A DNA stretch of 64,000 nt, from positions 59,530 through 123,529 of IMG/VR virus record IMGVR_UViG_3300028591_000117, one strand, 5' to 3'. The notes beneath the pieces were generated by a model. It worked only from the letters and a program-made list of their open reading frames with translations, did not search any database and was not told the origin of the DNA. Below, in pieces: positions 1-50,599 of the stretch; the first letter of the stretch is position 1, and each line of letters starts with the position of its first letter. This DNA comes from a virus (Duplodnaviria; Caudoviricetes). Made by a program: the position numbers and the translations under genes.

Positions 1-997
1 AGAACTGATACATACTCACAATATATTATAGTTGGTTTATTCTCTCTGATATTTTGTAATAATACTTTTAATAATAATTTTTCTTTATTTGAAATTTCTT
101 CTCTATCTATTTCATCAGAAACATTATCTACAACAAATGTTATATCTCTTAGTCGAACTGACCAAAAATCTTTAGCTTTCTCAGACATTTTACCACCAGA
201 AGCTTTTAGATAATTCTTAGTTTCAGTTTCATTAAGATGAGTTGTATGATAGTTAAACTCTAAATTATACTCTTTTTGTCTTACTATAATTACTTCATTT
301 AAAATAGATTGTAATCTCTCTATATTTTTATATCCAACTATTTCTTCTATTGTTCTTTGAACTTTCTGTCTATTTCTTGTAGTTTGCGTTATTCTTTTTC
401 TATTAATAATTAAATAGTTATATTTAAAATTAGACCACGCTCCTAAAAGACTTGGATTTAATAATGTAATCATCCAATACATTCCTTCTATATTATTTTT
501 GCAACTAGTAGCTGTTAAAAAATATAATATACAAAATATCTTTCTTATTTGTATAAATTGTTTATACATATTAGACTTAGGATTTTGTAGTCCATTATGA
601 CTTTCATCAACAATTCCTAAAAGTTTATGCGTTTTATACAACTCAGCTAAAGTTGGTATTGCTTTATCGATGCATGTATTAGATATTAATAAAAATCTTC
701 CATTAGGATTTTTAAATGATTTCTCAGTACTTATCATTGAATAGCTTACATGTAATTTTTCAGTTAACTCTTTTTCAAAAGACATTAAAGCTTTAGGTGG
801 AGCTATAACTATAGTTATCAAATCTCTATTCTTTAACATGAGTTGAGTTGCTAAAGTAACTGCTGTATAAGTTTTACCTAAACCAGTTAAGTCTGGCCAG
901 ATATAACTGCATAAGGTCTTCTTATTGCAAAGTCTATCATTTCATTTTGTTCTTGTTTTAATGGAAACTCTTTTGATAGTGTATAATCTGGAACCAT
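1..997 (-). CDS. SNF2/SF2-type helicase, truncated by the window edge and interrupted by a 5-nt gap in Walker A (missing from the ORF track)
   Basis: RBS AGGAGG and ATG at 997 give MVPDYTLSKEFPLKQEQNEMIDFAIRRPYAVISGQT*. A second frame from 887 reads TGLGKT...IVAPPKAL...IVDESH...FLTATS (motifs I, Ia, II, III) and stays open to position 1. Confidence 0.85.
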
Positions 998-1017
998 TTA
1001 AGCACCACCTCCTTTAA

Positions 1018-1972: not shown

Positions 1973-2826
1973 AAATATATTAACTAGGTAGGAATTATTT
2001 ATTTACCTACAAGTTTAAGACTTAGCTCTGTTTATTAGTTGTACTCTAATGAGGAAGGATTGATTACCTTCAAGACTGCTAGCTTTAGACAATGTAATAC
2101 GGTCAAAATCTTTTTCTAAGATTTCGCGTTCCAATTTACACCTTCTGACACAGATTTGTACTGAGTGATTAATTGCCAAACTATTATACACCTTTTTACA
2201 GGCTTCAACTGCATCTACTTAATGAAAGCTGTGTATATATGCCTCGAACACGTACATATATCACTATCATCTAGTCGCAACCATCATTCTAGACTGATTA
2301 TATAAAATTTCGCTATATAAACTCGTTATTATCATAACTCTAAGTCCATTTCAGAACTGTCTATATACCACTTACTCCAAGCAAGAGTATTCGTGCACTA
2401 CATTTGTAGGAAAGTTGTCAAATCTTTCATTATTAAATATAACCATCTTATTAAACTACTATATTTATTATTATCTGGCCAAGATAATAACATTTTATAA
2501 TATAGATTGGATTGATTACCAATATATCAGTACTCAACTACCTATTTCCATTTAACACGGATTTTAGCAGACAACATCTATCAAATTTATAGGAGCATAT
2601 CTCTCCATCAACCGCGAACATTTCTCGTTCTCTCTACTGTTTAGTCGCAACACCACATGTAGACTAGAATGCATTCGATAGACTCAACTTACACTAACTA
2701 AGAATAACAACAAAACTCCCTCGGCTTTTGACCTGGCTACTTAGCTCATGACGAGTTTTTTAACTCGTGTTAGTTTCTACTCTTATAACGTCGAAATATT
2801 GTTTGAGTTACTAAGTTAATATATTT
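1973..2826 (-). ncRNA. Large (~850 nt) structured non-coding RNA, GOLLD/ROOL-class candidate
   Basis: No ORF of 60 aa or more. Ends form a 13-bp stem (2814-2826 with 1973-1985). Many local hairpins and repeated modules, a boxA-like leader upstream, a terminator downstream and a tRNA nearby. Confidence 0.75.
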
Positions 2827-3075: not shown

Positions 3076-3152
3076 TGGTAGGCAGAGTAGGACTTGAACC
3101 CACGACCAAAGCTGTATAAGAACCTCACTCTAACCAACTGAGTTATCTGCCT
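3076..3152 (-). tRNA. tRNA-Ile, anticodon UAU
   Basis: AGGCAGA TA ACTC AGTTGGTTA GAGT G AGGTT CT-TAT-AC AGCTT TGGTC GTGGG TTCAAGT CCTAC TCTGCCT A CCA: a full cloverleaf with encoded CCA. Confidence 0.93.
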
Positions 3153-49100: not shown

Positions 49101-50459
49101 TTATTCAGTTACATGAGTAATTAAACCATTTACATAGAAATCAGCACTTAGTAACTTTTTAGCATAAGAAGTTGCATAACCTTGAGTACCTAAGAAGTTC
49201 TCACCCATAATGAATTGAGTTGATGTAATAGCCATATAAGGAGCATATACATAACCTCCATCCCAAGGAGTGTCGCCATTGTAACCAACAACGAAATCAT
49301 CTGCACCAAAGTAAGGGTTCTTAACTACTAAGAATTTACCGTTTAAAGTACCAGCAACATGTGGTCCAGCTTCATTTAAGCTTGCAGCAGCTTTGAATTT
49401 TGAATGTGTTTCAAGGATATTAGCAGCATTTTCTCCAACAATTACGAAGTTACCTGTAATTCTACGAGTTTTTGCGTAGATTTTATTAGCAGCTTCAACA
49501 ATTGTTTGATAGAAAGCTTCATAGTGGTCAGCACGTGAAATACCAAATGGAACAGGTTGATTGAAAGATACAGTCATTGTAGTTCCAGAGTTAGCTAAAT
49601 CAGATAAGATTTCTCCATCGATTTCTGAACGAATTTCGTCAGTAGCTGCTCCAGCAATGATTGATTGTAAATCAACATTTTGAGTCATTTGTAAATCATA
49701 AGCTGCATCCAATGAGAAAGCAGTTGCTAATTTACGTGGTCTAGCAGTAACTGTGATATCAGTTACGATTGTTTTGATACGAGGAACTCTAATTGGAGCT
49801 GCATACATATCATGTTCATAATCTGCTTCTAAATCACTACCAGTTAAACCAGAAATTACACCAGTTTCATAATCAATTGTAGCACTACCAATATGTCCTG
49901 CTCCGTCATCAGTATCAGTACCGATTTTAACAGAACCAGGAACTACTGGAGTCCAAGCTAATTTAGCTTTTCCATCTTCAACTACTAAAGCTTCAGCTTC
50001 AACAGTTTCAGAAGTATATTTGAAAGCTGAGTCTAGTTTTTCATTTTCAACATAAACTCTTTCAAATGAACTGATTACGTCACCTTTTTCAATTTTTCCT
50101 TTGTTATCATCAAACACATTCTTTAAGTAGAATACTACTCCTGCTTTTTGCTTAAGAGGTTGAACGTTAACTAAGTCTTCAGCAACTAATGTAGGCATAA
50201 CTGCAGAAATAAGATTTAAATAATCATTTTTCTTAGCAATATCACCAACTTGAGTACCTTGAGCTTCAGTTAATTTAGCACGTACATCAAAAGCGTGAGA
50301 TACGTTTTCAAGCATAACAGCTAAATTAGATTTTTTGAAATCATCAAGTTCTCTACCATAGTTAGCATTTTCTTTAAGAGCTTTGTTAACAGCACTTATC
50401 ATACGGCTATGTTTTCTAAGTAAATGTTCATTCTCTGTTAAATATTCTCTAACTTGCAT
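49101..50459 (-). CDS. Major capsid protein (T4 gp23-like)
   Basis: VMPTLVAEDLVNVQPL, VTARPRKL, EIRSEIDGEI, GYVYAPY. Start moved to ATG 50459 (RBS AAGGAGG). Propeptide has LTE/LKE/MLE/LTE-A sites. Confidence 0.95.
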   Translation of the reverse strand: MQVREYLTENEHLLRKHSRMISAVNKALKENANYGRELDDFKKSNLAVMLENVSHAFDVRAKLTEAQGTQVGDIAKKNDYLNLISAVMPTLVAEDLVNVQPLKQKAGVVFYLKNVFDDNKGKIEKGDVISSFERVYVENEKLDSAFKYTSETVEAEALVVEDGKAKLAWTPVVPGSVKIGTDTDDGAGHIGSATIDYETGVISGLTGSDLEADYEHDMYAAPIRVPRIKTIVTDITVTARPRKLATAFSLDAAYDLQMTQNVDLQSIIAGAATDEIRSEIDGEILSDLANSGTTMTVSFNQPVPFGISRADHYEAFYQTIVEAANKIYAKTRRITGNFVIVGENAANILETHSKFKAAASLNEAGPHVAGTLNGKFLVVKNPYFGADDFVVGYNGDTPWDGGYVYAPYMAITSTQFIMGENFLGTQGYATSYAKKLLSADFYVNGLITHVTE

Positions 50460-50599
50460 GAACTTTTCCTCCTTCGTCAAATTTGTATTACATTTTTTAT
50501 TTAATAACTCATAAATAATTGTAACCCAATAGACAATATTTCTATGTTTTATTAAATAGTCTAATACTCGAAAAGTTTATTTTTTAACTTTTCATTATT

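Follow-up and report, generated by a model that had tools for sequence, protein, structure and literature searches.

Very few systems are known in which translational bypassing occurs naturally: gene 60 of phage T4 with its homologues, the mitochondrion of one yeast and, as a candidate, the Hau3 terminase. According to a bioRxiv preprint and earlier work cited in it, the insert in T4 gene 60 protects against the endonuclease MobA (bioRxiv 10.1101/2022.08.31.505936; Bonocora et al. 2011, cited there). [quoted passage not shown] Short hops over a stop codon were previously known from engineered constructs only. Synthetic stop-hops were described in E. coli by Weiss, Dunn, Atkins and Gesteland in 1987 (reviewed in PMC5009743), and at the time of the 2016 review by Atkins et al. 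a natural in-frame stop-hop was not known (PMC5009743).

We analyzed a 64,000-nucleotide stretch of DNA (the window) from an uncultured gut phage; it makes up the right half of a viral contig in IMG/VR that is 123.5 kb long and has a G+C content of 28%. Near its left edge, on the minus strand, a helicase gene is interrupted within the Walker A motif, and the arrangement of the gap suggests that this is most likely a rare natural case of short translational bypassing. The minus strand around the gap reads GCA GTT ATA TCT GGC CAG ACT TAA, and a second ACT lies 5 nt on. The upstream open reading frame, including its stop, spans 997..887 (minus strand) and encodes 36 aa. The downstream frame (+2/-1) stays open from 941, across the window edge, as far as L001:972, a total of 489 codons; the ~295 open codons reported in the original prediction are correct for the part inside the window. 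The product had Pfam matches to Helicase_C (1.7e-14), ResIII (1.8e-8) and SNF2-rel_dom (1.3e-7), all above cut-offs, and the hallmarks of an SF2/SNF2-like helicase are present (GLGKT, DESH and a Helicase_C domain), with motif I complete only after a hop. The neighbors of the gene encode a HAD_SAK_2 protein, a 113-aa protein of unknown function and a 57-aa zinc-ribbon protein. The features are listed in Table 1.

Table 1. Features of the interrupted helicase gene and the tRNA gene, in window coordinates.
Feature	Position	Strand	Basis or remark
Strong Shine-Dalgarno (SD) sequence AAAGGAGGTGG	1005..1015	-	Sequence; upstream of ATG 997-995; kept in interrupted relatives
Helicase N-terminal 36 codons, MVPDY...AVISGQT, the last being the putative take-off codon	890..997	-	Sequence identical to the N-terminus of intact homologues
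Putative take-off codon ACT (Thr36)	890..892	-	Last upstream-frame codon common to intact homologues
Stop TAA immediately following the take-off codon (context TAAC)	887..889	-	Sequence
5-base gap TAACT, its last three bases (887-885) being the putative landing codon ACT	885..889	-	Absent from intact homologues
Putative resume codon GGT and remaining Walker A (GLGKT)	870..884	-	GGT TTA GGT AAA ACT
Rest of SF2/SNF2-like helicase, past the window edge to L001:972	1..884	-	Pfam
Local hairpin CAGUUA-UA-UCUG-GC-CAGA-CU-UAACUG, enclosing take-off codon, stop and landing codon	884..909	-	Minimum free energy (MFE) fold
tRNA-Ile, anticodon TAT	3076-3152	-	Only tRNA in contig

The locus resembles the synthetic stop-hops in having matched codons around a stop, putative re-pairing +5/+6 downstream and a slow A-site codon as the likely trigger. 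Unlike those engineered sites of low efficiency, the helicase sites occur in nature, within a conserved catalytic motif, and form a set of multiple alleles under selection. With Hau3 it shares a phage essential-enzyme gene and a short block after a slow codon (10 nt in Hau3, 7 nt in a prophage), the skipping of which restores a conserved junction, and the closest parallel to Hau3 is provided by the CGG variants described below (L117, 11 nt). The Hau3 trigger, however, is a rare UUA tied to bldA tRNA regulation, whereas that of the window would be a stop followed by a 5-nt hop, and the gene, the host group and the insert sequences differ. As in T4 gene 60, the codons match, a stop follows the take-off codon and, in the window copy, the take-off codon sits in a hairpin; as with gene 60 and MobA, the insert lies within the gene of a conserved enzyme and appears to pass from phage to phage through recombination. 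The gap measures 5 nt rather than 50, sequence homology to the gene 60/MobA cassette is absent, no endonuclease gene adjoins the helicase, and the hairpin is not conserved. The byp elements offer a likeness in their many independent short bypassed inserts, an unused A-site codon as trigger and some landing codons matched at two of three bases, but they are GC-cluster elements of 27-55 nt across a mitochondrial genome, while the gaps here measure 1-11 nt in one phage gene family. We found no paper describing such gaps in this helicase.

We identified 139 helicase homologues; close relatives were obtained from ENA and Logan by exact look-up, and a scan of IMG/VR gave distant relatives only. TAACT is not present in intact homologues, for example L041, L042 and L122. 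Intact homologue P0003 (507 aa, 90% identical) contains RRPYAVISGQTGLGKTYTAV, which is the window sequence with TAACT skipped, and skipping TAACT yields ...AVISGQT-GLGKT, exactly as encoded by intact homologues, so that the hop product would be the ancestral protein. In an alignment of 16 full-length relatives, Q35, G37, G39, K40 and T41 were invariant, and only a 5-nt hop restores Q35-T36-G37 of motif I. Two ACT codons read by the same tRNA (892-890 and 887-885) flank the stop, the TAA lies directly 3' of the first, and resumption at +5 gives the expected protein. The original prediction, made from the sequence alone, had proposed such a hop between matched ACT codons to give ISGQT-GLGKT, and the sequence and the intact homologues bear this out. 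It had also called for an alignment of the helicases of related phages; the hop product matches the intact copies, and at least 15 other gap variants were seen among relatives. A -1 shift upstream (giving WPDLTGLGKT), which it had offered as an alternative, was rejected because Q35 and T36 are lost; such a shift also leaves the in-frame 6-nt gaps of relatives without rescue. A prfB-type +1 frameshift was rejected as well: the net shift required is +2/+5, not +1, and the sequence has no SD-like element upstream of the take-off ACT.

We favor a reading in which one full-length SF2/SNF2-like helicase is probably made by short translational bypass, a +5 stop-hop. Ribosomes would start at the SD-preceded ATG (997), translate 36 codons and pause with peptidyl-tRNA-Thr on ACU (892-890) and UAA in the A site. 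The tRNA would then leave its codon and the mRNA slide 5 nt, with re-pairing at the identical ACU (887-885) and decoding resumed at GGU. The junction peptide predicted by the hop is PYAVISGQTGLGK. The sequences show the layout of the site and how the motif is restored; the hop itself, its efficiency and its purpose are inferred.

The gap variants in relatives down to ~40% identity were 2, 5, 6 (in frame), 7, 10 or 11 nt long (Table 2), while the distant clades (~30% identity) were all intact. These variants share a grammar, in which the take-off codon is followed by a stop or CGG, then by a usually synonymous landing codon, and then by GGN (Gly). A stop or CGG followed the last conserved codon in every gap variant found, and we estimate that a triplet drawn at random at this base composition is a stop with a probability of ~8%. 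In most variants the landing codon was synonymous with the take-off codon and in the others two of three bases matched; three variants, with GCT and ATT landings, had no synonymous landing codon. In the tabulated variants, reading would always resume at a Gly codon. The 10-nt family occurred in TAG, TAA and TGA versions that had diverged at up to 4 of 10 positions with the stop and the length kept. Gene calls of many homologues start at or slightly before GLGKT. At real gene ends in this genome, C followed the stop in 5 of 116 cases, but C after the gap stop is forced by the landing codon and is therefore not independent evidence of a weak-terminator signal. If hopping occurs as proposed, the helicase would amount to a natural mutagenesis series, with varied take-off and landing pairs, three stops, a hungry codon and gaps of 1-11 nt, and would allow the rules of short-range hopping to be tested directly.

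Table 2. Gap variants in relatives, written as take-off codon, gap, landing codon and next codon.
Locus	Take-off	Gap	Landing	Next codon	Offset
L116	ACT	TG	ACT	GGA	+5
L115	ACT	TA	ACC	GGT	+5
L009, L083, L053	ACT	TG	ACA	GGN	+5
L103	ACT	TG	ATT	GGG	+5
L044	ACT	TAGT	ACA	GGA	+7
L033-36	ACT	TAGGTTA	GCT	GGT	+10
L037, L038	ACT	TAAGTTA	GCT	GGT	+10
L121	ACT	TGAGTTA	ACA	GGT	+10
L039, L040	CTT	TAA	CTC	GGA	+6, in frame
L008, L052	CTT	TGA	CTT	GGG	+6, in frame
L119	CTG	TGAC	CTA	GGT	+7
L120	CTT	TA		GGT	+2
L117	ATT	CGGCGCAG	ATA	GGT	+11

A second type of interruption, with nine cases, consists of a single C directly before a Gly codon, which creates an in-frame CGG. It occurred in L006/L098, L053, L056/L095 and L054 (near locus position 130) and, mid-gene, in L064 (2450-2470), in contexts including ACA[C]GGT, TAT[C]GGA, ACT[C]GGT, TAC[C]GGA, ACT[C]GGA and TTA[C]GGT. 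L056 and L095 had two single-C sites in common despite coming from different samples. This phage uses no codon more rarely than CGG (1 in 35,457 codons), and since CGG is nearly unused, ribosomes should stall at it roughly as they do at a stop; the single-C inserts look like sites of +1 frameshifting at a hungry or unassigned codon. One relative stood apart from both types: in L010:1595-1625, which reads GGG CTT CGGCCTGA AAA ACG, no take-off and landing reading restored GLGKT. There, 8 nt stand where one Gly codon is expected, and they contain a GGC-UUCG-GCC mini-hairpin.

Both halves of the gene are under purifying selection. Downstream of the gap, omega was 0.03-0.23 overall and 0.03-0.1 for close pairs, including pairs in which both copies are interrupted; L033 and L037 had a dS of 1.6 and an omega of 0.06, and L037 and L039 differed by 3 nonsynonymous and 27 synonymous changes. 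Pairs with the same interruption type among L033-36 showed 0-5 synonymous and 0 nonsynonymous differences, L037 and L038 showed 2 and 0, and the near-identical interrupted and intact pair L121 and L122 showed 33 and 0. The N-terminal 33 codons of interrupted copies had a pN/pS of 0.00-0.22, and the copies inspected keep the SD and the start. The upstream peptide is conserved in interrupted copies, but in intact genes too. The allele of the window occurs on at least 4 downstream backgrounds, which differ by 120-134 synonymous and 41-44 nonsynonymous codon differences and are all open for 465-472 codons. The alleles interchange fast, so part of the measured selection may reflect intact ancestors or recombined segments. 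The original prediction had named a continuous gene in all relatives, together with relaxed selection on this copy, as an outcome contrary to bypass; many relatives proved to be interrupted and neither half is free of constraint. With the gene under strong selection and the same gap rules in many relatives, it seems that ribosomes most likely hop.

The gap turns over quickly. Out of 113 cluster representatives, 46 look interrupted (~40%), and the tree required at least 28 state changes among the 113 clusters, 17 of them forced by well-supported branches. L121 and L122 are 97-100% identical over 3.9 kb, their differences comprising a clean 10-nt block and four clustered substitutions, and L037 and L039 are 96-100% identical save for one 150-nt window spanning the N-terminus and the gap. 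Among contigs that carry the junction of the window, identity is 90-98% in a patch reaching from about -100 to +30 and 75-90% in the flanks around it. Because the patch is more alike than its flanks, the gap would seem to travel as a short recombination patch of ~130 nt. Alternatively, those nucleotides are under allele-specific constraint.

The hairpin reported in the original prediction is indeed present in the MFE fold of the window (an 81-nt fold at -18.4 kcal/mol with z -1.9, and a 63-nt fold at -17.7 kcal/mol with z -3.7). It was absent from L116, L044, L039 and L118, the last of which shares the TAACT insert and shows no significant fold, and its proposed place in a bypassing signature was not upheld; it appears to be specific to the allele of the window and not a conserved part of the signal. 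No stimulatory element common to the variants was identified. Weiss and colleagues reportedly found in 1987 that hops without stimulators were inefficient, at ~1%. Just upstream of the gap, the helicase mRNA contains the 10-mer TATCTGGCCA (894-903, minus strand), the exact complement of which lies at 2472-2481 (plus strand), in a large non-coding RNA region ~1.5 kb upstream; 2 matches to the complement were found versus 0.07 expected.

As for the proposal that bypass is regulated, the comparative evidence supports the hop and not the regulation; a tolerated or protective insert spread by short-patch recombination fits at least as well. One speculation, by analogy with T4 gene 60, is that the insert may persist by altering a conserved DNA site while translation tolerates it. 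Extended to the whole set, a tentative and rather doubtful reading is that a clade of large phages from gut and rumen carries a natural multi-allele series of very short recoding sites in one helicase gene, some being stop-hops that range from +2 to +11 and others +1 shifts at the unused codon CGG, all resuming at Gly, which spread as ~130-nt patches and persist by altering the target of a site-specific nuclease or guided defence while ribosomes repair the message. If true, the logic of gene 60 and MobA would recur here repeatedly on a miniature scale. No homing endonuclease adjoins the helicase, and HNH_3, GIY-YIG and LAGLIDADG_3 gave no match. About 8 kb from the helicase and outside the window (G000:C1:51471-51560; L124), a 136-aa ORF has an HNH domain at 24.1 bits, just above the Pfam cut-off, and is the only homing-type nuclease signature that turned up in the genome.

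The main rival to a hop is that the interrupted copies are loss-of-function alleles, which we consider unlikely. The helicase would be dispensable, or its loss sometimes favored (for example as an escape from a host defence that senses it), and null alleles from a mutational hotspot would spread by recombination with the gap never translated across. The fast turnover, the near-identical genomes with and without an insert and the large share of interrupted clusters fit this picture. So do two signs at the insertion sites: the insert of the window completes a quasi-palindrome, and in L009 TTGACA is an inverted copy of the adjacent TGTCAA. Both hint at an origin by template switching, and a quasi-palindrome template switch may have given rise to the insert of the window itself. 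Null alleles, however, would be expected to include nonsense, frameshift and deletion lesions elsewhere and to gather random secondary lesions, and none were seen; copies with several lesions had only the special kinds (gap grammar and single C). Each lesion begins with a stop or CGG right after the last conserved codon and precedes a Gly, with the motif restored if the lesion is skipped. The 10-nt family holds to its stop and length despite its divergence, the differences within an interruption type are all synonymous, and the 36-codon N-terminal ORF with its SD is still constrained. Should the hop be real, annotators are warned that such interrupted helicase genes are probably not pseudogenes.

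Other forms of recoding are distinctly improbable. A +2 frameshift, from ACU to UUA and then ACU, would give ...GQT-T-GLGKT, one residue longer than the hop product, with junction peptide PYAVISGQTTGLGK in place of PYAVISGQTGLGK, and in-frame variants would be read through. Its net frame change is the same as that of the hop, +2 and +5 being inseparable by sequence alone, and slow A-site codons promote both shifts and hops (PMC5009743). Yet a +2 shift adds residues inside the strictly spaced xQTGxGKT loop, where readthrough of the 6-nt gaps would put two extra residues and a shift through the 10- or 11-nt gaps three unrelated ones, and it leaves the recurring synonymous landing codons without explanation.

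We give very little chance to two separate polypeptides, in which the 36-aa peptide and a C-terminal protein initiated separately, by termination-reinitiation or at an internal start, would perhaps associate. The TTGAC and TTGAT variants do form a UUG that overlaps the stop (ACU UGA / UUG ACU GGA), and gene callers took that UUG as the start (P0082, P0071, P0114, P0087). In the window, however, the downstream frame reads GAC TTA ACT GGT with no start there, and its first ATG comes 34 codons in, past Walker A and without an SD. Most variants lack a start codon, and a split severs the P-loop from Q-T.

Removal or correction of the 5 nt at the nucleic-acid level, through RNA editing or processing or through DNA heterogeneity in the population, is likewise very improbable. 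Intact and interrupted alleles do coexist in nature at high identity, and the direct repeat ACT..ACT could support slipped-strand deletion, but the stop/CGG and landing-codon grammar would then serve no role, and the interrupted form is the consensus in assemblies from ten samples. We know of no process by which bacterial or phage mRNA would lose 1-11 nt.

That the gap is a sequencing or assembly artefact, an alternative raised in the original prediction and favored only by the general expectation that a lone frameshift in a metagenome contig is frequently an error, has a negligible chance, as all 10 contigs fetched (ten different samples, several assemblers) carry the identical junction, the exact 36-aa mini-ORF peptide is on record from 19 contigs and L118, a 70% identical relative, carries the same insert. 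A protein-search census of mini-ORFs gave 6 matches only, all ending in QT or QTGL, too few for statistics. The one seemingly broken copy, L134, proved to be a chimeric contig and thus an artefact of assembly: after ~1 kb it runs on into the 3' end of the same gene in reverse complement.

Genome-wide explanations were also rejected. The genome uses the standard code: under code 11, 96% of it lies in stop-to-stop ORFs of 100 codons or more. An alternative genetic code was rejected on this ground and because each of the three stops is found among the gaps and a change of frame is required in any case. A suppressor or frameshift tRNA was rejected in view of the tRNA content of the 123.5-kb contig, which is a single tRNA-Ile (Table 1). 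ATA is the most used Ile codon of this phage, at 40 per 1000. Across the whole genome, no other long ORF lacked a usable SD-preceded start as the helicase does. The only other long leader belongs to a 491-codon open frame at 49101-50576 (minus strand), in which a start is first possible after 32 codons and a start preceded by an SD first appears after 39, and is probably an ordinary intergenic leader.

These gaps also prompt one to ask why inserts of this kind are drawn to the ATP-loop codons of phage helicases. A different kind of insert was seen in L054:155-2628, where an intein-like element of ~1.1 kb sits at helicase motif II (...VDEAH/C ... HN/C). Its middle is endonuclease-like and is itself split into two overlapping ORFs. 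With an intein-like insert at its DEAH motif, the helicase family therefore does host selfish elements.
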